A stretch of 63,421 bases of DNA, filler included, from Sluysia triapertura (lineage: Eukaryota): NCBI GenBank assembly GCA_046118255.1. It is 5 parts of 5 records of this genome, joined end to end, with 100 filler letters (N's around TTAATTAATTAA, not from the genome) between each part and the next. Parts side by side here need not be neighbours in the genome. Positions count along the whole stretch, not along the records: positions 12,666 to 23,732 come from JBJNIA010189397.1; 4 more parts are not named here. The stretch is one strand, 5' to 3'. The stretch's first letter is position 1; each line of letters begins with the position of its first letter. Made by a program: the position numbers and the translations under genes. Below are positions 4,070-59,564 of this stretch, in pieces. The notes under the pieces are model-generated. The model was not told the DNA's origin. It worked only from the letters and a program-made list of their open reading frames with translations, and ran no database searches.

Positions 4070-5466
4070 AATATATAAATTGTTTCAAATGTTCATATTA
4101 AAAAACAATATGAACAATTCTATTTATTACAATTTTTATTTATTTGACACCTAATAAAGTCTGATTTTTAATTGCCTAGATGCCTTTTCTCCTTGAATTT
4201 CATCAATCAGATCCCTTATTTTGTTCATCTTATCAGGAACATTAGCTTGAAAGTATTTTTCGAGATTGTTTTTGCATACTAGTAGGTGTCTTATCCTCTC
4301 ACTACTGCATCTTCAACAGAATTATTATTTGTTTCCTCTTTTCTTCATTAGAACTTTCTTTTCATACTTCTCTACTAGATCAAATAAGAGATGTTTATCA
4401 AATTTTGGATTAATCTCAAAACATGGAAAATCATCACATGCAGCATTCACTTCTTTAACACACGCATTTTCGAAAAACTTGGTAAAACAATTAGATAGAT
4501 GCTTTCGAAATCCAAACCACTGCTTTATATGAATCAACCTTTTTGCACCATATCTCTTGTATAACATTATTATCTAAATTAAAATTCATTGGCATACTTA
4601 AAAACTTCTTTCAATCTTTTTATAATAAGAGATGACGTATAATTTGATTGGAAGTCTTTAGGGTGAATAGGTGCGTTCTCTAACATTAATTTTTAGAAAA
4701 CTTGCCATATGCTTTATCCTCTTTAGAAATTATATATGTTCTGTTTAGTGAACATTTCCAGAATAGTCTGGTTTCGTCACAATTATAAACATTTCTATCG
4801 TCATATTCTTTTAAATTTGGCATGTACAACTCCTTTAAATTAAAATATACATTTCATCCACGGTTTTTGATTCCTCAATAATTCTTTTAGACGATATCAT
4901 ATAACTGGAAATAAAAGAATTAAGCCAACTGTTTGATGTTTTAAAATCATGATTTTCTAAGTGTTATGCTAATTCTAATGCTTTCTGTTGCAATACATCA
5001 CCACTGATACTAATATTTCATGTTCTTTGAATCTGGTATCAACTTGTTAACCACTACATAAATGTGTTTTTCGTTTATGTTTGGTGTGCAAGTTTGACTT
5101 CTAGATTTCGTAAGATTATTTATACAACCTAATGAAAGATTGTATTTTGATGAAAGAAAGCGTTGAGAACAACCTTTATCTTCAACGAATAATTTTAACA
5201 ATTTCTCTTTCTCTTCGATGCTTAAATCCTTTCGAAGCATCGTTTAGGATTTGTATTTTTCATGTTCATAAAAAACAGTTAATAATGAATATTTAAACAA
5301 AAAGTGGAAAAATTATTAATTTATTATACACTAATTATTGCTCACTGTTCAAAATAAACAGTGTTTATATTACAAAACTCAATTTTCCATGAAAACTATA
5401 TGGCTTTCAATAATTTTTGACTTCAATGTTCATATTAAACTCTGTTCATATTAAGCAGGTTTCATA
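4070..5466 (-). mobile_element. Degenerate pogo/Tigger-family DNA transposon (CENP-B-like HTH + DDE_1 transposase pseudogene)
   Basis: Minus strand gives MLRKDLSIEEKEKLL..SQRFLSSKYNLSLGCINN (HTH), VSGDVLQQKALELA..FKTSNSWLNSF (CENP-B HTH), VYNCDETRLFW (first catalytic D) and LENAPIHP. Many stops and frameshifts; ends approximate. Confidence 0.8.
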
Positions 5467-7436: not shown

Positions 7437-9322
7437 TCACAGAGTATCAATAGCTGATACACATATTCTTGTTGCACATGATCTTGAATTGAGTTTGAAC
7501 AGAGGAATAGCTAAAATGTAATTAAATATTAATTTAATTAATTTTTTTTAATTTTATCGACCTATTTAAAATTGTCGTTTCGAATTACAAGAAAAGATTT
7601 TACGTTGATTTTAGTACGTTATTAACCGTACAAAATTTAATAAAAATCTAAAGTGATCATTAAAGAGAACTGAAAATATTGAAGTTCAAAATAAAAGTCA
7701 AAAACTTTTTGGTTTAGAATAGTATAAACTGTTGAGTAGAACAATATGGGGAAATTAACTAATATTGGATGAATAGGCGAATTAAAAAACAGTAACCAAA
7801 ATTGAGAAAATGAAATAATAAAAATTTATGTAATTAAATGCTGATTAACACACTGGTGTCTACAAACATTGCGAGAAAAAATGATTTTATAATTTGTGTT
7901 TTTCTTATAATAAAGGGTTAGATTTGTTCATTTTTAAATTATTTTGTTATATTAATAAAAAAATTAGTTAATAATGTTAAGTTAATGTTTATACAAATCA
8001 AACTAAAGTTAAAGAAAAATTTTCTTAGTAAATTAATAAAAATGAAATTTTTTAAATTATATATTCATACGCACTCGCCAAAATATGTATGTCACCCTTC
8101 ATATCCATTTATTTATTTAATATAATTACAATGAAACTTTATCTGAGTATTACGTCTTTTAATAATATTTTAATTTATTAATTTTTCATTATAATTAATT
8201 ATTATTTTTTTATTATCATTTGTTATTTTAATTGTTATTAATTATTATCATTACTTTATGTTCTTATTATCATAATAATTTAGGATCTGCCTGACATTTA
8301 TTTTTTAAGTTTTGCTAAACTAAGTTATCTTTAAAGTAATTATGTAAATATCATATAAAATAATCTAATAAAAATAGCAGTGAAAATGAACCCATTTTTT
8401 AAATTTCTAACCTTCATCGTTGAATTTTTTGAAATGATCAAATGACTTCCACTGAACAATAACAATAAAATCTGGATTTCGAGTTCCAAACCAATGCTGA
8501 ACATTTTCAGTGGCACAAAGCAAATAACCATCATATTTTTGAATTAATTCGCTTAAATCAAGAATGTAAAATTTAAATGCACTATCGTCTTTCGTTCTAT
8601 AAAAATCAAATTGAAGACAGTGATATTCTGAAATATAAATTAGTATATAAATTTTCTTATATTAATTGTAAATATTACCATAGTAAAGAATATTTTTGCT
8701 ATGCGATAAATTATTAACTACCATGTTATGCAATGTTCAATTTTCTCTCTATGATTAATTAATTAAAATTTACTAACAATTTTCAGATTATTCCGTATAC
8801 AATTTATTTTAAATTATCAATATTTTGATAAAAAGATCTACTAAGTTTTGAAGCATAAATCACTAACTTCCTAATTAACGCACTTTTCTTAATTATTTAA
8901 TTTAATACAATGTAAAAAATTGTAAAATATATTTGCATATCACTTTTAGAATATAACTAACCTATTGCTCGTCTAAGTGGTAAGCACAAATCAGCAGACA
9001 TTATTTCGTATGTTCCAGGTGTAATTGGTGATCGCAATTCAGTTGTAGTATGAACAAATTTTATTGCATTATCCGAATTGTCGAAACTAATAAGGATTAA
9101 TGATAATTACTTGACCATAATCCATTAGAAACATAATCTTTCAAATCTTGTTTCTCAGTAATTAATAATGTAATATTATCCATAGAAAGTACCGACATAT
9201 CTCTTTTGCGACTGTGATATTCGAATAATTGACTTTCTATGAGACAGTTCAATTGAAATGTTGGAGTTATCAAAAGAACAAATTTTATAACAGATACCAA
9301 ATGCATACTTTGTCGATTAACA
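7437..9322 (-). CDS. DUF1330-like (dimeric alpha/beta barrel) protein gene, three 3' exons; one frameshift near 9103 (pseudogene or assembly error)
   Basis: Exons 9322-8962, 8627-8412 and 7510-7437 have GT-AG ends and matching phases (1,1). The middle exon is open: YHCLQFDFYRTKDDSAFKFYILDLSELIQKYDGYLLCATENVQHWFGTRNPDFIVIVQWKSFDHFKKFNDE. The last exon ends AIPLFKLNSRSCATRICVSAIDTL*. Domain call is by motif resemblance only. Confidence 0.55.
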
Positions 9323-10799
9323 CTGGAAAAACAAAAAAATAAAAAAAGGTTGATAATAAGGATAAAAAAATAATAATGATAACAATAACGTAATTATTAT
9401 TAAATGTTTTAAAATAATGTTGATGTTAATGTGAAAGTTATTATGTGGTAATCGTGGCATTTATATTACACGACAATAATCCTAATAATTATTATATATT
9501 TTAATACGACTGGAATTATAATAACAATAGTTATAGTTCATGATAATTATGTACAATGGTTATGTTTGTTTTTTGAATGAGTCTAATAGTTTTTTTAATG
9601 TTCTGTGTAAGTAAGTGATGTTTTTATGTGATGAAGTATAATGAATTTTATATGATTTCCCTACACAAGTTATAGTCTTTCAAAATAATATAATTATTAT
9701 AATAAAATAATCTTGTTGATTTGGATATTTTAAAGAGATTTTACTTAGCAACAAATTTAAACTGTTGCTGAAATAAATTATGAAATGATTTTAAGTTTAC
9801 TTAATCACCACTACTATTAAATTCCTGGTTATTAAAACTTCAAGCAAATAAAACTAACGAATAAACTAAAAAGATTGACAGGATATTAGTTTACGAATAT
9901 AATTTTTCCGTAAACGTTATGCAGTATTAGTTTTCTCCAACAAAATAATTTTTTTTGACATCACGATACAATATTATTTCCAGAAAAAATTTTCAAAATA
10001 AATAATGTGTTCATTCTAGATTTAGGTTGTTTATATACTTTAACATAACACTGACCTTGAAAAAATGTTTAATTGAAAAATTAAAACAAATAATTCTATT
10101 AATTTGTTAGTTTTAGTTTTTTAATTTTATTATTTTATACTTTAGAATTTCGAAAATCAATCAATTTTATATTATCAAATACCAATTAAATATAATAAAA
10201 AATAAACAAAATAAATATTAAAATAAAATAAACAAATTATAATTGTTAGAGTATAAATAGATATCAACATAAATATTGATTATACAAAATAAATACACAA
10301 TTGTTTAGAATAGTTATTTGCATATAAATATTGATTTACATATGAATATATAAATATTACATAGTGACATAACTTTTGCATACTGACAGTGTGTATGTAT
10401 GTTTATTTTTATTACTTCTACTATATTATTAATTATATTTATTATTATTTATTCTTTTTATATTTTTAATTTTTTAAAGCAATTATCTACTTACAAATGA
10501 AAGTAGGATATTATAGTGATTATTATTATAACTATTATTATTATAACTATTGTTATTATTTATTATTGCTATTATTGTTTATTATTTTTATCATTGATAT
10601 TTATAATTATTGCAAATATTAAAAAGGAAATAAAAATTAGTTATAATTTGGCAACAAAAAATCAATGAACTTAAAAATACCAGAAAGCAGTGTTATTTTT
10701 ACTATTACATGTTTATTAATATTACTTCATTTTATATGTGTTGCTCTATCCGATTCACGTTTATATGAACAATCAGATAATGGATATTATAAAGATCGA

Positions 10800-12565: not shown

Positions 12566-12665
12566 NNNNNNNNNNNNNNNNNNNNNNNNNNNNNNNNNNN
12601 NNNNNNNNNTTAATTAATTAANNNNNNNNNNNNNNNNNNNNNNNNNNNNNNNNNNNNNNNNNNNN
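12566..12665. other. Artificial contig-joining spacer (N44-TTAATTAATTAA-N44)
   Basis: 100 bp, identical at four sites; the 12-mer has stops in all six frames. Confidence 0.95.
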
Positions 12666-14110: not shown

Positions 14111-15794
14111 ATGGCTTTGCCAAATAATTTTAAAGATTGTATTTCACAATGGTCTTACCAGAAATGCGCAAATTTAGTGGAGCAGAGGAAGAACTCTGCG
14201 ACTTATGTGAATACGATAGTATCGCCGAAGCTATTGGATGAAACGAAACAGAAAAAGTTAAACGAATACAAAATTACCTTACTGGCGTGGCGATTCAGAT
14301 TTATAAAGACATAAATGAACAAGATAAAGCAACTTGGAACTCTTTTGTTAATGCATTTACCTAGGAGATTGCCCACGATGACATGGAAAAATGTTAAATT
14401 TAAGAAAGCAAAAAGCTAATGAATCTGTTCATGAATTCGCAAGAGCATTAAAAAATCTAGTAAATAGAGCAAAGATTGCTGAATATAAAAAAGAAATGAT
14501 TTTAAAAGATAAATTAAAAACCAGTTTACGTCCTGAATTGAGAACTTATGTTACTTTAATTGAAGAAGCATCTTTCAAAGAATTAGCTAAGAAATGAAGA
14601 AGTATAGAAAAATCTTCATGTAAAGATAAAGATAGTATTAATTATGTTAGTTATAGTGAAAGTAAAAGCCCACAGAAATAATAGAGATAAATTTATTAAT
14701 TCTAATAATCGACATGATAATTATAATAATATTAATTATAATAGAAATAATAGTAATTATAAATATAATAGTCCGCGCAGAGGTATTTTTAACTATAGGG
14801 GAATCTTAGAAATTTTAATAATAATTTTAGAGGAAATAATTTTCAGTCAAGAAGATTTCAAAATAACAGAGGAAATCGAAATGGCATGACAAATTATAAA
14901 CAAAGACCAGAACCAAGATGGCCACCAAATACAAATATAAATAATTATAGAGCTCGAAGCAAAAGTCCGGATAGATATAATGATAAGGCACAAACCAATA
15001 TTGATGGGGAAATACGCTGCGATAATTGTAACAAATATGGGCACTCTATAAGAAATTGTGGTAAGTTAAAACAAAATACTTTTAGTCAAGATTTCTCTAA
15101 GGTAAGGGGTTCTCAACAACAAAAATATCAAAGCCCTAATAGGAAAGTAAGGTTTAATAATAGTAGTAATAAAAATGAGAAGGGCCAAGTAAATGGTAAC
15201 TGTATAAATCAAAGAAAATACAACGAATATGAAGATCAATATCAATATGAAGATGACTATTACGAAGACGAAGAAGAACCTAACAGAAATAGAAAGAATA
15301 ATAAGAAGGAACAAAGAAGACATGAATCTAGTAGCGAAGAAGATAATGACTACTCAAAATTGATAACAGATAAAGAAAAGAATGCTATGCTACGAGAATT
15401 CTATATCACTGGCTTAGATTGCGATAAACATCGATATCGGGAATTCAAGAAAGATAGAAAACGAAGAGAACAAAAAGAAAGAGAAGAAAATCGATTAACA
15501 ATACAACTAATTCAAGTAAGAATCCAAGAAATATTTAATAAAGCTATAGAAGAAAGGATCGAACAGATTAAAGAAATCAAAGATGTAATTACAAATGAAG
15601 AAATGAAACGAAGAATTCAACAATTAATCGATAAATTGGAAAGTAAAACACAAAAGATAGAGCCAGAAGTAGAAGAAAGCAGTACAGAACCGAGTAGCAT
15701 GGAAGAAGAAATGAATGATAAAGAAAGTGAAATGAGTAACACAGAAGAAGATGAAACACAGGAAAAGAATTTACAGGAGAAAATGATGTTATAG
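14111..15794 (+). pseudogene. gag: Retrotransposon Gag (capsid-like domain + CCHC zinc knuckle), frameshifted
   Basis: LPEMRKFSGAEEE..AEAIG*NETEKVKRIQNYLTGVAIQIYKDINEQDKATWNSFVNAF; LRKQKANESVHEFARALKNLVNRA..LRPELR; knuckle CDNCNKYGHSIRNC at 15018-15059; then an acidic/coiled-coil tail. Confidence 0.85.
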
Positions 15795-16879
15795 AAAATG
15801 ATGTTATCAGACAAACAGATGACGAAGAATTACGAGCAGAAGAAATAGATATCGATTCAGGAGAAGAATACTACAGTGCCACCGAATATATGGAAGAAGA
15901 AATAATCAATAAAGAAATAAAAATAATTAATAAATTAGAAAAGGAACCTATATTTCTTCTTGGCAAATGAGAAAATTGATACCCTAGAATTACAAAGAGA
16001 CTAAAAGGTCGAAGAAATTTTATTAAATTTGGCTAAAGGTAAAACAAAAGCTAAACATTTAGATGAAAATTTGGATGAATTATTAAAATTAAATTTGAGT
16101 ATTTACAGTGGATATGATATTAAAATGATACTTGCTATATTAAGCAATGAAGATAGCTTATAAAGAAATAAGGCTATAAAATTATTAAGAAAAATAGACC
16201 GAAATGAAAAAGAAAATAATCCCAAAGATTTAATGAAAATGAAAATAATTATTAATGATATTACAAATATTTTAATGGAACCCCAATTATTTCAAAAGTT
16301 AAAGATAATATTGAATTAATTAATTCAAATGATACAACAATAACCGATGTTGATTTATATTTCTATGAAAGAAAATTAATTCCATATGAATTTATAAATG
16401 ATTATGGTTATCCAACTATAAAAGGAAATCATGAGGAAACAGTAATAGAATCAGCAATATTCATGGCTTATACTAAATCTAAAGAAACAAACAAATTTAA
16501 TAATAAATTTTTTGATAATTTGGCTAAGAATAAACCAATGATCAGCCCACATTAAGATAAAATATCCGACGTTGATTTAGATAATTCCCAGGTTCATTAC
16601 TAAAAGAATTACTTGAAGATAATAATAATGATAATAAAAATGAAATTATAGATATGACTAAAGATAATAATGATAATTTTGATAAATAAACCCGATTAAA
16701 TTCTTGATTTAAATAAAAACCCTCATATTGAAACAGAAAACAAAGAAACTAATACCTTCAAAAGAAAAACTGCTAGACCCAGAAAGAATAGAGACATTGA
16801 TGAAACAATAACCCCCAATCCAATACAAAGAAAACCTGTTGATTTAACAAAAATAACTTATAAAAATAATAGTGAAGAA

Positions 16880-17330
16880 ACACTTAATTCAAAAAGTGTA
16901 ATGTATACTTTATTATCGTATAAGTTTACTAATTTTGACAAATATAAAATATTATTACCTGAATTTAAAACATAAAACTGCATTACTCAAAATAATTGAT
17001 ATAGTGGAAGAAAAATACAAACATACAGATATAAGTGATCATTTGGATAACGGACAATACAAAACCATTATTAATAAGCAAATTAATGCTGGTATTAATA
17101 GAGAAAGATTTAAGATTATAATATCTTATGTGATGTTCCAATGTAATAAAGCTGTATTGGTAAATAAAGAGAAAATAGATAACGTTATAAATTTTATAGA
17201 TAAGAAACTTGGTAATTGGATAAAAGAACAAGGAGGGTGGAAAAATATTATTAAAGAAAAAGAAAAAGAAGAGAAAAGCAAACTTAATGAACCACTTAAC
17301 TTAATATCAAAATTAATTAATTACCAATAA
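16880..17330 (+). CDS. Bcl-2-family (BH4-BH3-BH1-BH2) domain carried by the retroelement; frameshift near 16970
   Basis: BH4-like NSKSVMYTLLSYKF (16886-16927, upstream frame), BH3-like ALLKIIDIVEEKY, BH1-like GINRERFKIIISY (17091-), BH2 LGNWIKEQGGW (17208-17240), in the correct order and spacing. Confidence 0.8.
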
Positions 17331-17358: not shown

Positions 17359-18500
17359 ATGTCAATCAACAATATGCTTTTTATAATTGTTCTACTGGCT
17401 TTATTTGGAATCCATAAAACAAATTCTATTAAAGCTTGTGATTGCAGTCAACCACAGATTAGAAGAAAATTTTCATTATTGGATACTGAAGACTGCCCTG
17501 AAGCGAGACCCAATAAAGTTAAAATAAAAGATATGAAAATACTAAAAGTTTATGAAGAAGGAAATCTAGTTACAACTTTAGTTCGAGAATGTTCAGTTAA
17601 AAGATCTGTAGTTATATGGTATTGTGGACATCATAGTCATTCATCATTTATCGATATTTTAATGTGTTGAAACCATTTAGGATTTTACCCTATAATTGTC
17701 GTGATGCTTTTGAAACTGGGTATATAGGTTTAAATAATGGAGATAAACTTAAAATTAAAAATAATGAAAAAATAATTTATAATATAAAAACTGCAGGTAA
17801 TGTAGTATTAATGGCACTTGCGAAAGAGGTTCGATAGAATACGAAGGGAAAATTTATAACAATGTAGTAGCGCAAGAAACATAAGTTGTAAGTCTAAGAT
17901 CTTTTAATGAAAGTTTTGATTTAGAAAAAGGAACTATGATGTCACGACCATTTTGTAAAAGTGACCAAATTAGTTGTGATAGGTGTAAATCAACACTAAT
18001 ATATGAATTGGAAACTTTTCAATGTCCTCTAGTATTTTTAAAACTAATCAAATTTAATTTAGTTTCAGGACTTATGTATCAAGATGATGATGAATTAGCA
18101 GTGGAGGAAATAAATGAAAAACAAATTCATAAAGATAATTTAGATTCACCACAAAGAAAACGACTTAATGAAGTGGAAACACCGACATTACCAATGGCAA
18201 ATAAAGAAGAAGATGGATTAATATTTGTTGCAAAATGTCAGTAATTAGATGTAGTCGGGAAATTGCAGAAACTAATTATCAAAGTATTTATTTGTCTGAA
18301 AATAAAATAATGCAAGCCAAAAAAAGTATAAATAAAAATAATTTGAAATTAAATACCTACTTTAATAATAAAATAGATTTCTATTACCAATTAGGATTAA
18401 TGTCACTTGAGAAAGTGTATCAAGCAATGATAACAAGAGATTGTCAATTAAATAAAGAAATTTTAAGGACAAAATTAGCAGTAGCAATTACTAATGGACG
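17359..18500 (+). pseudogene. env: Envelope-like glycoprotein related to chuvirus-type (class III) fusion glycoproteins; frameshifted and 3'-truncated
   Basis: Signal peptide MLFIIVLLALFGI, then ACDCS..FSLLDTEDC, ECSVKRSVVIWYCGHHSHSS, NCRDAFETG, TAGNV..NGTCERG..NVVAQE, and NLKLNTYFNNKIDF..LEKVYQAMITRDCQLNKEILRTKLAVA. This Cys/motif pattern matches chuvirus-like glycoproteins. Spans ORFs 17359, 17936 and 18235. Confidence 0.7.
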
Positions 18501-19894
18501 TTATAAATAAATTAGAAAATATTATTATTCACGGTAGATTAGGATTTTTAAAGATGCCAACAAATTCACAAATATCATTACCATAAATCATATTAAATTA
18601 TCCACCAAGACCATGTACACCAATTCCAAATTGGAATAACTTAGATTGGTGGGACAGGGATGCTTCGGTGACATCAACGTGTGGATCAGCATCTGAATCA
18701 TCATATACATCAGGAATAGAAAAAGGCAATGGTAATTATAGTAATAGTAATACTAATAGTAGTATAATGCTAATAACAGGGATACAAAATAATAAATCTC
18801 TTTATATTATTACTTTAATGCTATTATTTGTGCAATTAATAACAATGATAACTTCGGATCCATCAAAATTAATATCTTAATTTTAATAGATACTGGTCAA
18901 TAGAGTTAAACATAAAAAATGAAATTCCGAAGTATTATTTGGGTATATATTGCATCTATACCAACCCATTCTTAATAAAACCACCGTCAGACATAAACAA
19001 TATTTATTACTGTGAACATTCAATTCATTATAATACTATTTTAATTATTTCATTACATAATAATAAATCTCAAACGGAACATTTTAAATATGTTTAAAAA
19101 TGTCAAATACCATAATATTACTATTGATGATTGTAATCCACCTGGCTAAACGTTAAACTTTGAATCTAAATGATTAACCGACTCAATACAACAAATATCA
19201 ATATCAAAAACACACAAAAAACGAAAACGTTTTCATCAGGACATAAAAAGTGTTTCAGAATCGCCTAAGTAGACAACATCACTCAGCATCATTGCAACAT
19301 CCTGATACTCATCAATTTCAAAATAATCATGTCTCCTTGTATCATTAGGTCTTAGGTTTCATATCATGTTTTCTTGTATCATTAATAGGTATGTGGGTAT
19401 TCTTTGATTTAACATTCGTTGACCATCAACATGACACTGAATTTTCGATCTTGATTTGTCATTTTCATCAAAGGTCATCAATATATAAGACTTGAATTAA
19501 TTTTTTGATACGCACTTTCTAAGGAGTTCACTCCTAAAATTTAAAAATATCAGCATTAAGTTTGAAAATTTTATTGTGGATGACGTTATATTATTATTAT
19601 TATTATTAACTTTATTTATAATATTAATTTCATTATTAAAATTGTTATCGTTATCCACATTGATAGTATTATAAAACGAGTGCTTAATGCACGTAAGAAA
19701 TTTATTATCATTATTGTTATCGAAAATATGAACATAAAAATAACAAAAATATACTTAATTAATTTTAAAAGGATAAAAAGAAGGCGTAACACGTATTAGT
19801 TCATGTATCACTTTTGATTAAGGATAGATCGATATTTCATTTATTACACTAATTTCACTAACATAATTGTTTAAGAACAAAATTAAATGCCTTG

Positions 19895-20737
19895 TTACTG
19901 CATTTTCCGTTTCACCACGTAGACCATATCTTGAACGTTTCTCGATTCCAAACAGAAAATTCTCAGACCAAAATTATGGCGTGTGATGAAGAATTGATGG
20001 TGTGACCATAGCTGTTTAAAGCATAGTCGTGACCAGCAGGACCATGGCATTGCTCGCCAAAATAAATTTGGATTTGGACCAGTAAGTGGTGTTGTGTAAG
20101 AATAAGACACAGGTTTTGTCACATTAAAAGAAATTACATAATTAATCTCCTCCTGTAGTGGTGGTTCCATGACCGTAGCTAGTTCTAAACCAGTAGACCA
20201 TACATCTTGTAAAATTACGAATTTAACAATATTTTTATAAACTAGATAAATCAATTCACTTTTAAATGAATGTTTCATCACCGTATCTGGGTCTGAGTCA
20301 GTAGGTGATACATTATACAAAATTATAAACTTAGTTTTATTAGATTCAAATATATGACAAATTGATGGATATGAATTCAATAAGTCGATACTTCGTAAAT
20401 TTGTTTCAGAAACATAAACAAATCGTGATATTATAACTTGATTTGAATTTCGTATTAAACATTCATCTTTCGCAATATCTGTAGTTGATTTTCCTTCAGT
20501 TAAATCTTCTATTGTATCCTTAGAATTATTTGTGCAATCACTTGTAGGAGATTCAACACTTCTATTATTTTCAAAAATTTCAATGTCCTGTAAATCTGAT
20601 AATTCTGGTTTATTATCATCGACTTTAATTAACTTTTTCTTTTTTAGCTTTCTACCACTGATAGCTCCTTGTAATGGCCGGTATACAATTATTTGGGCTA
20701 GTAATTTAAAATTTAAATTTAAATTATTTAAAAACAA
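19895..20737 (-). CDS. Uncharacterised 280-aa intronless ORF, convergent with the retroelement env
   Basis: 843-bp open frame in roughly 75% AT DNA; no recognised motif; true start uncertain. Confidence 0.45.
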   Translation of the reverse strand: MFLNNLNLNFKLLAQIIVYRPLQGAISGRKLKKKKLIKVDDNKPELSDLQDIEIFENNRSVESPTSDCTNNSKDTIEDLTEGKSTTDIAKDECLIRNSNQVIISRFVYVSETNLRSIDLLNSYPSICHIFESNKTKFIILYNVSPTDSDPDTVMKHSFKSELIYLVYKNIVKFVILQDVWSTGLELATVMEPPLQEEINYVISFNVTKPVSYSYTTPLTGPNPNLFWRAMPWSCWSRLCFKQLWSHHQFFITRHNFGLRIFCLESRNVQDMVYVVKRKMQ

Positions 20738-23732
20738 TACTACAGTACTTTAAATTAAATGTTCTTGCTTTAACACAGAAAAATAAAAAAGCGCATGTTT
20801 TATTTAATGTAATAGCTACACAAATTGAATCTAGCCGTGCGTAAAAAAGTAAAGCGCACAAAGAACTTACATGATAGCAAAGATGGGCGTAATTTTTAGT
20901 AGCATAAAAATTGCGACCAATAAATCTCTTTTTATAAAAGTTATGGGTTTTTTCAAAGTTATGGTAACAAATCAGGAACATAAGAGGTTTAAAGCCATAA
21001 AAATTCAAATCTAAGCCAAAAAAATTGAGACAGTAGATAAATGGTCCATTGAGTTGCTTCGAAAATCATTCCCATGTCTTCTCATGCTAATCACCCCACT
21101 CAGTACGTAAAATAATGGCCATCACTTACATTGTTGTTGGGTGGATTCACTTGGAGAATTATTCTCAAAAAACCACCATAAAATTCGGATCCGAATCCAT
21201 TTAAAACTACCTTTGTTCTGGGAAGAATTTTGATCCAATCTGTCATTTTTCAAATAGTTTTTAGAGATAAGACTTAAACATATATCTTGCACGTCTTCTA
21301 AAAATGCAAGATATAACTTTCTGATACTTTGTAATTAATTTTTAAAATGCAATTTCTAAATTTTTGAATTTCTTTGTAATTATTAATTAAAAATGCAGAA
21401 TATAACTTTCTTTATAATTAATATTATTTAAACAAGGGATTTTCTTCTTTCTTTTCTTTAAAATCTTTAAAACTTTCTTTTTCTTTCCTTTTTTTCTTTA
21501 AAACTTTTATGATTTTCTTTTTATTATCTTTAAAAATTTTTATAATTTTCTTTCTCGTTTCTGTAAAATCTCTACAATTCTCCTTCAATTTTCCTCAAGT
21601 TTAAGTGAATCTTTTATTGAAAGACTCACTACAGACTAATTTAACTTTGTCTTACAGACTAATAGCAATAGGACGAAGAGTGAGAGTAATTATGTTTCGG
21701 AACCAAACGCAACTATTTATAATAATAATTTATATGTTGGAGATTTTTATTCTTATTAATTATTTATTTATTTTTGGTCTTGTAATGTGTGTGATAATAA
21801 GTTAAAGTTGTGCGATGTAAAGAGTATTAGCGAATGACTTTTATACAAATACATGACTGTAAGAGGGAACAAAAGTACGGTATATGACTGAGACACCACA
21901 CTCCTGACAGGGAATTAATTGTTAGAATAAACGGTTTTAAAATTTTTAAAATTGTTTTCAGATTTATTTTTGTAGGTAAATGCTTTGACCGAAATTTTAC
22001 CAAAAAAAATATGAAAAAAATGTGAAAAATAATTAGAGGTCTACGAAAGATAAAAAATGCAAAAATAATAAAATATAAAATATTAATGTATAAAATTGTT
22101 ACATCATTTTTTAAAGAAAACTTAAAATATAAAAATATGAAGTTCCACAATTACAAAAATTATAAAAATACATAAATATAAAATTATATAATTATGCAAT
22201 TATAAAATTTCAGAATATAAAATGATACGATTAGACACTTCTAGAATTGCAAAAAACATAAAAGTGGAAAATTGTGAGGCACAAGAAAAAGTGTTGCGTT
22301 GTAATGATGATTGGATGACAGCGGGAATCATGCTTAATGTACCAATTTGGAATGTTGATGAAACAAATCTTATCAGACAACTGTGAATTTATAATGTTAA
22401 AGGGCGATGAATAATGTAGTGTTATGGGATGATGTAAGCGAGACATATGATGAGGTTTGTGTGTAATTGATTGTTATGATTTATGCGATGTGTACATAGT
22501 CGTGGGCTGAACCACCAAATATATTTATTTTATAAAATAATATAAAATTTAAACTAAATTATTTCTTTTGATAAATGCTATAATAATTCGACTTCTTTCC
22601 GCAATTTAATTTGTCTCTCACTTCTACTTTTTTTGATAAATTTTGATTTCACTTGGTTTTCCATTACTTAAGCTTACCCTGATCAATAATTTACGAGTTA
22701 CGGTTAGTCCGTAGGATTTTTAGAAAGTAAGGTACAGTGGAGGATTAATAAGTCTAAATTTGTTTAAGGTTTATTTGCAAGTTTAATAATATTAATTTGC
22801 AAAATATTATTAACTGCGATAACATATTTTCTGATAAGATAAAAATAAATAATGATTCTTTAAATATTTACAACTACATTGTTGAGATGTTTGTAAAATT
22901 TAAAATATAAAATAATAATTCGTTAAATATTTACCAAAAAACTTTTTTTTATTTAAAATACTTCTCGAAATACTCGAAAACTAACGTTTGTAAAATGTTT
23001 TATATGCCAATTTAATGAGGAAGATAAAAATTAAAGCCTTACAAACTTTAATCATTAGTTAAAAATTCATGTATTATCTTCCATCAAAATATATTTTGTC
23101 GAATTTCTTTACTTCTACAATACGGCATTGTTAGAATCATTGTAATGATTTGCTTTGTAGTCCGAATTCATCCCTTTCAATTTGATATGCAATTTTAATG
23201 CTCACACAGCATTTTGTGATTTTTCTCCTGTCCAAGATTTTTTATAATAACCCTCTGCATCTTTATCTTTTAATTTTTTCTTTGTAAATTTTTATCTAGG
23301 CAAGTTATTTTTACTAACTTATTTTTTTCACAGCCATTTTTAATTTTTCTGCTAATTTTTTATTGGTTTAATTTCTTTCTTTATTTTCAAATTTGGCCAG
23401 TTGTATGAAAGCACACCCATTATTTTATTCGATTTTAGCCAATCACAAATACATCAGCATGACTGAAAAATTCCTTATCAAACAAAGTAGCCATATTGGC
23501 CTTAGATGAAATGAAATATTAGATATTGTAATTATTATTTTCATGATTATTATTATAATTTTAATTCTTATAGTTATATTTATTATTATATTTATTATAT
23601 TTTGTAAATATTAAAAATTTTAAATAAATTTTGGATCATAATAATTAATTATTTATTTAAATAGAAAAATAATTGATAATAATCTAATAAAAGTTAAATA
23701 AAAATTAATTAAATTAAAATGTTTAATTTGAA

Positions 23733-23832
23733 NNNNNNNNNNNNNNNNNNNNNNNNNNNNNNNNNNNNNNNNNNNNTTAATTAATTAANNNNNNNNNNNN
23801 NNNNNNNNNNNNNNNNNNNNNNNNNNNNNNNN
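23733..23832. other. Artificial contig-joining spacer
   Basis: N44-TTAATTAATTAA-N44. Confidence 0.95.
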
Positions 23833-28461: not shown

Positions 28462-28650
28462 TTAACGAATGAAACTAATTACATATGCATTGATAACATC
28501 ATGTGTAACTGTCCATATGCAAAAATCGCGAAAAAGTAGTTGAATTCCAACTTTATTAAACGTTTGTTCTTGAGATTTGTTAATTGTCATTGTGAAAGAC
28601 AAGCAAATAAGAAATTGATTTTGCTGAAATTTAAATGGAAATAATTCAAT
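28462..28650 (-). mobile_element. Helitron PIF1-helicase remnant, downstream part
   Basis: FPFKFQQNQFLICLSFTMTINKSQEQTFNKVGIQL matches the RQFP..FAMTINKSQGQT motif of Helitron helicases. Confidence 0.75.
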
Positions 28651-28653
28651 AAA

Positions 28654-28710
28654 TGGATTCACCTGAATTCGAACCCGGGACCTCTCGCCTCCCAGCTGTG
28701 CAGTTCGGTG
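28654..28710 (-). tRNA. 3' half of a split tRNA-Cys(GCA)-like pseudogene/repeat
   Basis: Minus strand CACCGAACTGCACAGCTGGGAGGCGAGAGGTCCCGGGTTCGAATTCAGGTGAATCCA: CT-GCA anticodon, AGGTC variable loop and B-box GGTTCGAA. Confidence 0.6.
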
Positions 28711-29807
28711 AATTTGAATGTAATATATGTATTTTAAAATTATGACAATGTAAATAAGAATTTTTGGTCCAAGATCACAAATATATTGTCTATAGTGCTT
28801 TTGTTGTTGCCGTTGATTGAAGTACGTTCAAGATTATTTATATACATTCTTAAAGTGCAACATAGTTAAATTATATAGAAATGGAAAAATATATAAAGGG
28901 TGTACAAACATTCCTGAAAATAGGTACATATTCATAGAGAGAAAAAGGAAGTCAAAGTTTACAAACATCATAGTTATATTTATAAAAAGCGTGGAGGAAA
29001 ATATTGGAAAATGTTTAACAATTCATTACATAAAGGGAAAAATTGAAAGATTCACAAACATTCATATAAGAAGAAGAGATACTTGTGGTATTGTCGTATC
29101 GGATTTTATTAATGTATTGAAGGGTAAAAAAGAAAGAAGCATATATTATTCAACGGAAACACAAAAGTACCAAAGTGGGATATTGAAGGGAATGATCGTT
29201 TTAGATATTAAAGGAAGATATTAGGGATAGCTTGCTATACTCGCGTGCCAAACCAGTAATATCGGTACAGTACTACCAGTACAAAATCATATTCTTGATC
29301 CCAAGAACCAAGAGCTCCAACTACAAATGTGTCTACGGAGACGGGACATCTGAGTTGGTCTTGGAGTTTTTGGGCCACTTGAAAGTTTTCATAGGGGATT
29401 TGATGTACATGAAAAATAGTTGGGAAGAATTAGTACCTTGCTCTTGAACATCAGGTTGTCTATAATCTCCAAATATAGGGGTTTGGGTATCTTTCTTGGC
29501 TGAGAAGCCTATTTGCTTTAGTTTACTAAGTAAACATTCAACAATTTTATTATGTCTTACTGTAAGACCAGTGGTAGTATGTGGGAAAAGACATAATACA
29601 TAGCCAAGAGTTTTTCTTTCGAAGCCACACCAACGACAGGTACCAGGAAAATTAAGTCGAATATTCTAGGGCCAAAATTTAAGTTTCAGGTGATTATTCC
29701 TGGCTTTAGTCATAAAAATCTAACACTAGTTTCCTAATTGTAGGGGAAAATGACAACCAGATCGAGGACTTCTCATAAAGCAACCGACAAATCGACCTTG
29801 GACTTCA
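28711..29807 (-). mobile_element. 5'-truncated non-LTR retrotransposon with restriction-like endonuclease (NeSL/Utopia/R2-type): C-terminus + 3' UTR
   Basis: Minus strand: KARNNHL..CRWCGFERKTLGYV..RHNKIVECL..RQPDV..IPYE..VDTFVVGALGSWDQE (CCHC-RHN-PD-VGALGSW signature). Flanked by direct repeats cagctgtgcagttcg (28693-28707) and cagccgtgcagttcg (29808-29822). Confidence 0.8.
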
Positions 29808-36767: not shown

Positions 36768-36867
36768 NNNNNNNNNNNNNNNNNNNNNNNNNNNNNNNNN
36801 NNNNNNNNNNNTTAATTAATTAANNNNNNNNNNNNNNNNNNNNNNNNNNNNNNNNNNNNNNNNNNNN
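36768..36867. other. Artificial contig-joining spacer
   Basis: N44-TTAATTAATTAA-N44. Confidence 0.95.
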
Positions 36868-38012
36868 GTTTGGTATAAAGCGTATATACTAAGCGAACTG
36901 ACCCTACAGATAATTTGTTAAGATTAAGGAAAAATCTAACAACTATAAGCTATAACCCTTATGTCAACTTCAGCTTTAGCGAAACCCAACATTACCTCAC
37001 TTATATTAAGCTTTAATTGTTTTTCTTTACTTTTTGTATTTTACTCTATGTACTTGTTAACCTTATTGAATTGCCTTTATCTCCGCGATACTCGCATTTT
37101 AAATACTGAGACACGCATTTAGTTATTCGCTTTAAAGAATAATTCTAACTTTAAAGTAATTGTCTAAATTTAAGTTTGGCAATCCGATCATTATTATTAA
37201 ACAAGTCTTAAATAATATAAAAGAATTAAAATTACTACTGCCAATTAATTATTTATACCATTATTTAGAGATTTTACGCTAAATGATATTTTATTTTATA
37301 GCAGCAAATTGTTTCATTATTTGTGTAAGTTAATGAAAGCAAATTTAAGTATAATTTAATTTGATATTTTTTTGGGGAAACGTATTTACTTATTTTAGCT
37401 CAACTAGGTGCTAAGATTGTAAATCAAGTTTAAAGCAACAAATTTCATCCAAACAGTTTCAAGTTGATCTTTGTTTCCAAATTCGAAAATCCTTTCTTAA
37501 TAAAATTCACTATATATAAATCTAATACTAAATAACAAATATTGAATATTAAATTAGACAAATAATTTCAATATTTTACATAACTACTTTTAGTGTACTT
37601 ATTTAGTGTTTTATGAAAGAATTATAAAACTTGACAATATTAACTCACGAATATTATAAGATTAGTAATAGCATATAAATGGATTAAAATTACAAATGCA
37701 TTCTTTGAACAATGAAAATATTATGTATATCAAATTTATATTCGAGTAATTAATATGTTTTGATTAACTAATTTTAATTTAGTATAAATTCTTAAAATTT
37801 CAAATTATCATTTTATTTATTTAAAATTTTTGATTTAAAATTCCTATAACGTAATGAGTAGATTAATTAAAAAGTATTTTATATATCACTTTTAATAATA
37901 AAATATAAATATAGTTATTATTCAGAAAAATTGCCTAACATAAGAATTAAATAATCTAACTATATAGCTTTATTGATATAAAGACACTTAAATGTTTTGA
38001 AAGTATAATAAA

Positions 38013-52900: not shown

Positions 52901-53107
52901 ATATCGTAGTTAATTGATTCGTATCAATTGATATCATGGATTTATGATGTTAATATATGAAAGGTTTTCAGGACTTATTACTATCTCAAAATATCTGGTA
53001 ACAAGAAACTTATGCTGCATTTTTTAGTTCCGTAGAAAATGACAGAAACTACGATAATATGGCAAATACAAATTGAAAAGTACAAAATAATTTTCAATTT
53101 ATCATAC

Positions 53108-53387
53108 CTTTTCATTAGTATTTTCAACTACACATTCTTGACCATCAAGTTTAGAAAAATCACCAGGACACCATTCCGAGGTTCCAGAACAGAATTCAGG
53201 TAAATCGCATCCAGGATGATTTCTGATTGGCAAATTGTTTTCGTATTTTCCACGACAAGTGACCCCTGACTTTTTATATTGGCATGTAGATAAATCACAA
53301 CATGATCCACTGGCACATTTAGCATTTCCGATCAATTTACATGTGCGATAATCACAACAACGACGTACTGCTTCAGGACATGTGTTT
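53108..53387 (-). CDS. ADAM disintegrin exon
   Basis: NTCPEAVRRCCDYRTCKL..CASGSCCD..CDLPEFCSGTSEWCPGD. Confidence 0.92.
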
Positions 53388-55029
53388 CTAATAATAATAA
53401 TAATGATAATAATAATAAATAATAATAATAACTCATTTCCACAATCACATTCTTCACCATTTTCTAAGATACCATTACCACATTTCGTAATTGGTGGAAT
53501 ACTTAATGGTTTTATATTCCAAGAATTTTCACTAAGAAATGCTTTCTCCAATAAATACGTACTATTATTTGGATAATTGTTAAGACATTTCAAATAACCT
53601 ATTTTTAACAATGCATTCATATCTCTTACTGAACAATCGGACCAGATCATTTTCATGTCATTATATCTGAAAAAATAAAAAACGTATCATTGAAATTAAT
53701 TACTTCCTTATAGTAGTATGTTTTCTAAAATTTATTTCTAAGAATAACCTCTCAAATTTAAAAAAACAATGAGCTTAGTGAAATGGTTCGATCAGTCTAT
53801 CTGTTAGAATTGTATTAGAGTGATTGAAACCTCTACATAACAAACACTTCATTTTATGAAAAAGTGTAATTAACGCTTCAAGAATATATAAATAAAATCA
53901 AAAAACATTTTGTTTTAATATTAAATTTTATTAAAATTTACTTCACAATCTTCAACCCTTAAATGAAAGTACGGAACAATCAGAAAAGAGTAGGAAAAGA
54001 TACACTATTGACCAAAGAGATATGGCAACAAAATTCTCAAAAATGAAGTGGATATTATAAATAAAAATGAGTTTAAAAATGCAAAGAGTTTACGAAAACT
54101 TCACTTTAAAAATTGATCGCTTAGTGTATGAGTGATTTGTTAAGAAAAGACACAAAAACTTCATTATATCTGGCGATATGTTCCAGACTATGGCACTACG
54201 AATTTCAACGAAAATGAGTAAGGGTACTTTTAAAGCTTCAAATGGATGGCTTGAACATGTTTCAAAAGTAGACATAATATAAGCTCAAAAGTTATTTCAG
54301 AAGTCTTAGTGGATCAAGCATTAGTAGACAATTTCAAAATATAAATACGACAGCTCATTTTTGTTTGTTTATTAGATTGTTTGTTATTTCTTTTAACGAC
54401 CAAATTCAATAACTTCCAATGTAACAAGATTCAAATGATACTACAGTTTCAGAGAGAAATATTTACCAAATAGACAATGATGAATTCGTTTTTTGAAAAT
54501 GTGAAAACTATTGACAGATTTTAGCAAGTTTTTGATGAAATATTAAAATAGTGATTGGTTAAATTTTTTAGTGAGTAAGACTTGACGAATATATCGTTAG
54601 CAGAAATTTTCGTAGAGTTTTTTGATCTATTAAATAATTGTTTTAATCTATTAAATAAAAATTAGAATATATTAAAATAAATAAACAAACAATTACATAC
54701 AATATTATTTTTCTAGTTGTAGAGTGAAATAAACAACCACGCATTTTTCTATAGAAACCAGCAGAATGCTCAGGTTCACCAAACTTTCTAAGCTCATTTT
54801 CATTAGAAGCCTTGCTTCGAATTGCAAAATAATTCCTTACGTGTCATCATTATTTTTCTGCTATTTGCTAAATTGTCATTAATATTATCCTATCTACCAA
54901 TTGCATTAGTTATCTGGCTTTGATTTATTTCTGCATTTTGTTTCGTTTCTCTTGAATTGGCGAATGCAATTTTAGGAAAATAAAAAACTAGAATTTTGGA
55001 AGCAATCAAAATAAAGTGAGCAACAAATA

Positions 55030-58000: not shown

Positions 58001-59564
58001 TATTGCACTTTACAATAACCATTACTTTCAATGTGTCCAGTTTTAAAGTGCATTTTTAATTTCAACATTCTAAAAAATATAACTGATTAATCCGCGACAA
58101 ATCGGGACAATGATAAAATCCAGGATATCTGGTCACTCTAAATATGTATGTAATAAAAATTAACAAAAACTATTATAATCCTTCATCTATTCTTGCCATT
58201 TACTACTTCAATTAGTTACTGACTAATCATAAGCAATACAACTTTTGTAAACAATATAAAAATATTAATTTAATTTTTGTACCGATAATTCGATTAACCT
58301 TTTACATTTCCATCATAATGTTAAAATTAAGTAATATTTATAAAATTTATTTTTCCCAATAAAATAATTACATTTTAATAAAATGATACAATTACATATA
58401 CAATTACAAATAAATTCATGTAATGTACTAATGGATTATTTTAAAAAAGTATTTTATTCACAATAACAATACAATTTTCATTTCATTATGTTTTATAAAA
58501 ATAATACATTATTAAAATCTGTCATTATTTAACCAACTTTAATATGCGTAACTGAAGTTATAAAGTGTAGAATTTACTTTAAAAATTCGATAATATTTTT
58601 GATAATAGATCTTTGTTGGTCACGTTTCGGAAGCATGAGTAATTTATTTTATTTACTCTAGACTTGTTCAAGCAAATGTGATATCAGGACATCTTTATAT
58701 ACGATCTTAGCATACGATCAAAAGGAACAAATTTTCAATACTTAACTTTCAACTTCTTTTGGAACTGTGTAAAACGAGAGATAAGTGTATTTCTAAGCAC
58801 TTAAAAGAAAACTTTTAAGATTATATTAAAATGCATTATGTTCGTAGGGTTTTTTTACAATTATCAAAAATGCATACTGATCAAGAATAAAAACCATGCA
58901 AAAAATTCCAGATAACAACAAATATCTCAGTCTCAATCGGTGAGATATTCTCCGCCACAATCGATCACTTCTTTACACCGTTCTGGTAGTTTGTCAATCC
59001 AACGTTTATTGAAGCTTCGTCGAAAAATTATTCAATCCACGTTTTTATTGCTTCTTCGTTTTCAAATGTGATGGTTCGACATTGAGTGGAAAAGATATTG
59101 GAATAGATGTCAGAAATGTTCATTTTTAGCTACCTGACACTCCATTTTAATGAGGGTAATGAAAGTGAAAGTTAGTCTAAAATAATTAAGCTTAATGAAT
59201 ACAACTCAAATAAGTTAAAACAAGAAGTTGGTATGTTTTCTTTGAAACAAATATTTTATAAAACATACTTATTATATAAAAGAAAATAAAGCAATTAAAA
59301 TTAGTCGTAGCAGAATTCCTTGGCAACACTGCTTCCACCAATAACAGCAACTATACATAAAAACAATAGTAACTAACACAAGACCAATAACACAGTTATG
59401 CTTCGTTGTTATTTTATTTTGTTTATAATTCGTTAAAGTGAAAAGATAATCATTTTGTTGGATATATCTATTAAAATTGGTCTTCCAAATTTCTATTTGT
59501 ACTACCATAAAATAAATATTAAATTGACTGAAGGCCTGCAAAATTAAAACAAATGTCACCAATG

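Follow-up and report, generated by a model that had tools for sequence, protein, structure and literature searches.

A decayed retroelement with an internal env

The window, a 63,421-nucleotide stretch (filler included) of five joined parts from the Sluysia triapertura assembly GCA_046118255.1, holds the remains of a retroelement in which gag, Bcl-2-like, and env pieces are collinear on one strand and env is broken. Its parts, in order, are:

14203-14609 (+), Ty3/gypsy gag capsid region, frameshifted and with stops, identified by tblastn to relatives' gag
15003-15083 (+), Gag CCHC zinc knuckle (one), within a 331-aa open stretch at 14799-15794
15084-16901 (+), decayed coding spacer of charged/helical character that separates gag from the Bcl-2-like domain, purine-rich on the plus strand like the rest of the element
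16902-17327 (+), Bcl-2-like domain, a 142-codon open frame directly upstream of env
17359-~17655 (+), env piece A, N-terminal ectodomain with a hydrophobic signal-like segment at ~17377-17410
~17667-17804 (+), env piece B, in a second frame
~17810-18235 (+), env piece C, in a third frame, with an in-frame stop at 17882-17884
~18217-18495 (+), env piece D, ending where the long central helix ends and where env homology stops
18494-18535 (+), likely the end of a retropepsin-type protease domain, joined to the broken env at a junction near ~18493-18496
18536-19100 (+), remaining repeated 3' part of the element, the repeat ending near 19.1 kb

Three-frame translation and tblastn with relatives resolved 17359-18495 into four collinear env coding pieces totaling 379 codons, with neighboring pieces always in different frames and three frame changes and one stop overall. 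An earlier note had rebuilt about 380 aa with a set of motifs from four frameshifted segments, and every one of these motifs was recovered in its place: DC..SLLD..C at 17440-17496, YCGHHSH at 17620-17640, AG at 17793 with G.C..G at 17813-17830 (a motif split by a frame change), N.K...Y at 18364-18384, and C.L...L...LA at 18442-18480. Pieces A and D each matched the Pfam fusion glycoprotein family PF24664 (Monjiviricetes_fusion), at E 4.3e-11 (model positions 3-94 of 653) and E 9.9e-8 (267-355), and were 37-47% and 40-52% identical to their best relatives, seven of them for piece A. Piece B alone gave no Pfam match and was placed by a collinear tblastn match to relative P0007 (41% over 44 aa, E 6e-5); for piece C the PF24664 match was in register though weak (E 0.037, model 149-207), and tblastn aligned the piece to relatives at 25-34% identity, with E values down to 5e-17. 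Read through together, A and D reached E 4.4e-16 and 58.4 bits against a curated cut-off of 27.

A glycoprotein profile scored the env at 63.7 and 43.4 bits, compared with a best of 12.7 in 20 shuffled windows, which is well beyond chance, a result less independent than that of Pfam because the profile was built from matches to the same env query. All 11 conserved cysteine columns defined from 49 relatives are occupied by Cys in the window env, in its N-terminal half. A short-word protein search with piece A found nothing among 32 candidates, a weak negative superseded by the whole-library HMMER search described below.

Homology to the seven best matches stops at 18495-18498. In all eight close relatives checked, env continues for ~190-200 aa past this point to a TM-like segment, and in intact relatives PF24664 coverage extends to model positions 585-650 of 653. 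The stop in homology, together with the longer env of the relatives, means that the 3' part is missing, as had been proposed from the abrupt end near 18496 and the absent TM. This comparison of sequences confirms the window env as the N-terminal ~55% of a predicted class III fusogen whose C-terminal ~45%, TM anchor included, is gone. The absent TM shows that the copy is dead; it is no argument against the family assignment.

Predicted fold of the fusogen

Fold class was assessed on the closest intact relative, P0002 (44% identical over matched stretches), rather than on the broken copy. Its model, built from a 41-row alignment, had a mean pLDDT of 81. Against the PDB, herpesvirus gB occupied all listed rows, with HSV gB best at E 1.7e-14; against BFVD, chuvirus glycoproteins ranked first, led by the G of Tacheng tick virus 4 at E 1.3e-43. 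The model places a helix at 124-140, at the start of env, and another at 665-720, near its end, and piece D corresponds to its helix 444-491. With the Pfam match, these comparisons bear out the suggestion of a chuvirus-like class III fusogen, and its assignment as a chuvirus-G/herpes-gB-type fusion protein holds at the level of profile and predicted fold.

Gag, spacer, and Bcl-2-like domain upstream of env

The association with a Ty3/gypsy-like gag, also part of the earlier description, is real. Gag lies upstream of env on the same strand, and its capsid region, which alone gave no Pfam gag match, was matched by tblastn to P0016 (E 1.3e-6), P0008 (E 3e-4 and 1e-3), and P0013 (E 0.005). A knuckle of the form C-x2-C-x4-H-x4-C is visible in the open frame; the Pfam zf-CCHC match is weak (E 0.22), and the knuckle of P0016 aligns to it by tblastn at E 5e-4. 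Relatives P0016 and P0008 are both collinear with gag and knuckle together.

Three read-through frames of 15800-17004 gave no Pfam match at E<=0.1, and sub-pieces gave matches only at E>0.08; Pfam detected no MATH, SUMO, BIR, or ankyrin domain in the decayed spacer. A CARD/death-like reading of 15969-16316, made by eye, found no Pfam support and was dropped.

Directly upstream of env, and absent from the earlier note, as was the protease-like tail directly downstream, is an open frame that resembles Bcl-2. Pfam Bcl-2 matched it at E 5e-4 to 7e-4, under the curated cut-off, and its best matches among PDB sequences were Bcl-2 (E 0.019). Its model had a pLDDT of 62; all listed Foldseek rows belonged to the Bcl-2 family, the best at E 0.029 and none reaching 0.001, and the top VIA rows were KSHV Bcl-2 (Z 7.7), GIV66 (7.6), and Bcl-xL (7.3), with unrelated helical proteins intermixed and every Z below 8. 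The BH1 consensus is NWGR. We saw a BH2 motif in the domain; NWGR was absent from it and from the relatives inspected. The same BH2-bearing domain stands directly before env in 4 of 18 relatives, the motif being absent before env in the other 14, and in the window and those four relatives it lies 30-55 residues ahead of the env signal segment. These signals from sequence and model are individually weak and mutually consistent, and we describe 16902-17327 as Bcl-2-like.

The break at 18495 and the downstream part

When a profile of the protease tails of 17 relatives was run over the six-frame translation, the 14 codons from 18494 ranked third of 126,754 positions; two unrelated positions outscored them, and the signal spans only ~14 residues. 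When 18494-18720 was aligned directly to 13 relatives, none of the frames matched significantly (best z ~2). One contig of search run X1 ends loosely before 18493, and the alignment of one X2 contig starts at 18494. For 18536-19100 there was no Pfam or tblastn match; RT, RNase H, and integrase were absent anywhere in the window by tblastn with 88 relative queries, and when 12-21 kb was searched against the window by self-blastn, no LTR pair emerged.

A large internal deletion that joined mid-env to the tail of a protease domain is the likely origin of this junction. In relatives such as P0080, protease-like repeats, with protease-end motifs, follow the integrase as well, so a single deletion could have removed the entire pol core. 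The copy keeps about 5-6 kb, without pol core or LTR pair.

Relatives of the env and its place among them

A whole-library HMMER search with the env gave 78 matches, the best seven being proteins of 748-2855 aa in which env is internal. Pfam was run on 34 of the 78 and found PF24664 in every one. Gag/knuckle, protease, RT, RNase H, or integrase domains accompanied it in 12 of 17 higher-ranked relatives and in none of 17 lower-ranked ones. Domain order in such polyprotein relatives is env-PR-RT-RH-IN, and the closest relatives of the window env are domains of Ty3/gypsy polyproteins with the order gag-env-protease-RT-IN; two members of the cluster, P0080 with 4844 aa and P0162 with 3003 aa, carry env-PR-RT-RH-IN in a single ORF, and pol follows env in P0004, P0006, P0013, and P0015 as well as in these two. 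Pao-type carriers are marked by Peptidase_A17 and Pao DUFs. The 39 relatives scanned carry gag-asp_protease/RVP, RVT_1, RT_RNaseH, Integrase_H2C2, and rve, and no BEL/Pao Pfam family was found among them.

P0006 (HBK71150.1) is a polyprotein of 2627 aa with the order env-PR-RT-RH-IN and a knuckle-like motif near its N terminus. Its record labels it a hypothetical protein from a Flavobacteriaceae MAG, and it likely stems from a mis-binned animal retroelement contig. P0080, P0003, and P0004 have several retropepsin-like domains each, P0080 with seven Pfam stretches, which is unusual for Ty3/gypsy.

For a tree of the env N-terminal half we kept 49 of 82 relatives (50 rows), excluding 33 whose matched part fell outside 270-480 aa. 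In this tree, which is unrooted, includes only one named chuvirus, and consists of rows gathered with the window env as query, the window env nests among polyprotein-internal envs, and stand-alone chuvirus-type G is separated at an SH-aLRT of 99; nodes local to the window env have support of 80-92. Identity of the window env is 33-39% to its 12 nearest rows, compared with 20.8% to the G of Hubei chuvirus-like virus 1 (P0084). An independent env capture, raised as one implication when the locus was noted, is not supported by where this env falls, among the envs of retroelement polyproteins and apart from stand-alone chuvirus-type G.

A diverged repeat family in a flatworm genome

Run X1 placed 9,901 contigs on 13-21 kb, 7,690 of them under 95% alike, and the number and divergence of these contigs point to a large, diverged repeat family ending near 19.1 kb. 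Summed X1 depth, which is not copy number, was 1,671-116,411 over 13.8-18.6 kb and fell from 70,828 (18340-18606) to 3,349 (18607-18873), 1,495 (18874-19140), and 32 (19141-19407); over 19098-19578 a contig of depth 19 matches the window exactly. No RNA data set was listed as matching the stretch, which speaks neither for nor against expression. Related sequence is present in two other organisms, in 698 and 321 contigs.

An adenylate cyclase 9 gene with several exons and Pfam Guanylate_cyc matches lies at 38001-47966 (+). Named flatworms supplied 18 of the top 19 matches to one adenylate cyclase 9 exon in the window (best 84%), with no triclad among the named matches. These matches show the host, until now only a probable flatworm, to be one on the evidence of its own coding sequence. 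Planarian genomes fit a GC content of ~24%, and from the ~24% GC seen here the host is likely a triclad. A word-indexed search with an N-terminal adenylate cyclase exon found nothing among 1835 candidates, a weak negative superseded by the adenylate cyclase 9 exon search.

Exons of an ADAM-type gene with a disintegrin domain lie at 53102-53686 (-). The stretch 8407-9393 (-) holds an exon of a DUF1330-domain gene at 8407-8661 (Pfam E 7e-6) and another open frame at 9097-9393; DUF1330 is better known from bacteria. A 284-codon open frame at 19895-20749 (-), with no Pfam match and repeated in run X1 at a depth of ~460-920, is probably another transposon adjoining the element. From the list of open frames, we take 4151-5243 (-) by eye to be a pogo/Tigger-like transposase relic, 28462-28827 (-) to bear a PIF1-helicase motif as in Helitrons, and 29333-29665 (-) to be a zinc knuckle with an endonuclease tail as in RLE non-LTR elements; the frames at 4328-4573 and 29336-29665 gave no Pfam match. 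Inverted repeat pairs at 50478-50701 and 58931-59187 (83-90 nt, 84-92%, ~8.3 kb apart) may be transposon ends or a small repeat present twice. Runs of 44 N, a 12-base linker, and 44 N occupy 12566-12665, 23733-23832, 36768-36867, and 49162-49261, and the 5' side of the element runs toward the first of these.

Discussion

We conclude that the element in this window belongs to a multi-copy, Burro-like family, as a decayed copy with an internal deletion. Although the copy has no RT by which to judge it, we are confident from the order and kinship of its remaining parts that the element works like, and most likely descends from, a GAG-ENV-POL Ty3/gypsy element of the Burro type. The copy can neither make a fusogen, because of its frame changes, its stop, and its missing TM, nor replicate, because it has no pol.

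Intact relatives suggest an ancestor that would have encoded one long polyprotein, gag - Bcl-2-like - env - protease - RT - RNase H - integrase. In such a protein, as the model of P0002 would have it, the hydrophobic segment at the start of env may act as an internal signal that sends the ectodomain into the ER lumen, and the env TM may bring pol back into the cytosol. Particle and target membranes would be fused by the trimeric class III fusogen, and apoptosis might be dampened by the Bcl-2-like domain. One large deletion, from mid-env to the protease tail, would have crippled this copy, with neutral decay following. The env likely came with the element from an old capture common to other flatworm elements, and not recently from a chuvirus.

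Several other histories could be proposed for the same remains. A flatworm Ty3/gypsy lineage unrelated to Burro might have acquired a Jingchuvirales-type glycoprotein in a capture of its own and reached the gag-env-pol order by convergence, a history that would suit the mere 39% identity of the nearest env in the tree, the undetected MATH, SUMO, BIR, and ankyrin domains of Burro, and the non-monophyly by POL of GAG-ENV-POL elements in the available text of PMC13524379. We nevertheless regard it as very unlikely: the window env sits in one clade with many polyprotein-internal envs, its Bcl-2-like neighbor is common to four relatives and to the published Burro (PMC6431247, as excerpted), and its motifs align by eye with the six Smed errantivirus ENV rows shown in PMC13524379. 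The PF24664 match, the chuvirus G proteins that lead the BFVD fold matches of the intact relative, and the report of a Jingchuvirales virus infecting a tapeworm (PMC7305300, in part) would all suit a history in which a chuvirus glycoprotein mRNA was reverse transcribed and integrated as a nonretroviral EVE beside an unrelated gag fragment. Such an origin is still more improbable, given that the window env is 33-39% identical to retroelement envs and ~21% identical to stand-alone chuvirus-type G, that these are split at SH-aLRT 99, that gag, Bcl-2-like, and env lie collinear with individual relatives, P0016 among them, and that the entire block is multi-copy.

The remaining two alternatives concern what became of the copy. 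The end at 18495 might be an assembly chimera of two repeat copies instead of a deletion, with the identity of the element unchanged; the repeat is high copy, N runs lie near the locus, and none of the contigs listed bridges the junction. There is, however, no N gap at the junction, and both sides apparently come from one element family, point the same way, and follow the expected sequence of env and then protease, as a simple internal deletion would give, so that we consider a chimera unlikely, if less so than either of the origins just discussed. To the idea that the env or the Bcl-2-like piece was domesticated as a host gene we give next to no credence: the Bcl-2-like frame is indeed open for 142 codons, but env is interrupted by three frame changes and a stop and lacks a TM, the adjoining gag and spacer are equally decayed, and the copy is one among many diverged ones.

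What this locus adds is one more dead copy, probably of an uncatalogued family. The class it joins is already published and consists of Ty3/gypsy elements of flatworms in which a gB/chuvirus-type env precedes pol and a Bcl-2-like domain has been captured. The locus shows no new capture and leaves the chuvirus host range where it was. The novelty implied by the earlier note fades against the excerpted text of two papers, in which an env of this kind is already published in Burro (PMC6431247) and in flatworm GAG-ENV-POL elements (PMC13524379). Nor does the locus imply a wider host range, as that note had suggested, for a Jingchuvirales genome listed from a Platyhelminthes host (PMC10084718) is reported from a tapeworm (PMC7305300), in the parts of those papers available, so that chuvirus-order viruses in flatworms were already known.

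The only value of the copy lies in pointing to a high-copy family in this flatworm, for the questions of whether such elements make infectious particles and whether they use Bcl-2 mimicry. At its most ambitious, the proposal would be that the host has a high-copy Burro-like family that is undescribed, may include intact members, and works as a true enveloped invertebrate retrovirus. The 30-55 residues between the Bcl-2-like domain and the env signal segment would then be explained by a second role of that segment, which after signal cleavage would tail-anchor the Bcl-2 domain in the membrane, so that the element could block death of the host cell during budding. We think this doubtful, if somewhat less so than any of the alternatives above. 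Among the titles and abstract openings listed in searches of the non-subscription literature, there was no functional test of an anti-apoptotic role for the Bcl-2 domain of Burro.

Comparison with known systems

The window env and the G proteins of Chuviridae/Jingchuvirales belong to the same protein family (PF24664), with a predicted class III fold and all 11 conserved cysteines of the N-terminal half in common, but the viral proteins are ~21% identical to it, are encoded as stand-alone genes of negative-strand RNA viruses, and form a separate branch of the tree. The mosquito BEL/Pao 'Anakin' elements (Dezordi et al. 2020, as cited in the available text of PMC10084718 and PMC13524379) are likewise LTR retroelements with a chuvirus-derived glycoprotein. 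They differ from the present element in superfamily and host, the relatives of the window env having Ty3/gypsy-type pol and an env ahead of the protease.

Closer parallels come from flatworms. A survey of errantiviruses (Chary and Hayashi, eLife 2026, PMC13524379) describes, in its available portions, only HSV/gB-type ENV and GAG-ENV-POL order in Platyhelminthes. It lists nine elements from flatworms, of which S. mediterranea supplies six, and favors an ancient acquisition of env. Smed_errantivirus_1-6 share with the window a gB-type env before pol in a flatworm Ty3/gypsy element, and by a comparison made only by eye, the domain I-II motifs of their ENV (REC..KR, CG..SH, G.C.G, P.C) match those of the window env. 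As reported there, they are intact and present in 1-215 copies, whereas the window copy is broken and probably belongs to another family.

The nearest published counterparts are Burro/GYPSM1, giant Ty3/gypsy LTR retrotransposons of Dugesiidae planarians (Arkhipova and Yushenova 2019, PMC6431247, as excerpted). Burro is a single ~4,900-aa ORF with long LTRs in an element of >30 kb, compared with the deleted copy in the window, although a relative of 4844 aa, P0080, exists. We find one CCHC knuckle rather than two or three, and the MATH, SUMO, BIR, and ankyrin domains of published Burro went undetected here; domains located after env would fall in the missing part. In the same source, the Burro env stands between BCL2 and PR and has matches to mononegavirus fusion glycoproteins, and D. 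japonica carries decaying Burro fragments with stops and frameshifts. As far as that text describes it, Burro shares with the element in the window a gag with a CCHC knuckle, a BCL2-like domain, a mononegavirus-type fusion env, likely a protease after it, a flatworm host, and decayed copies.
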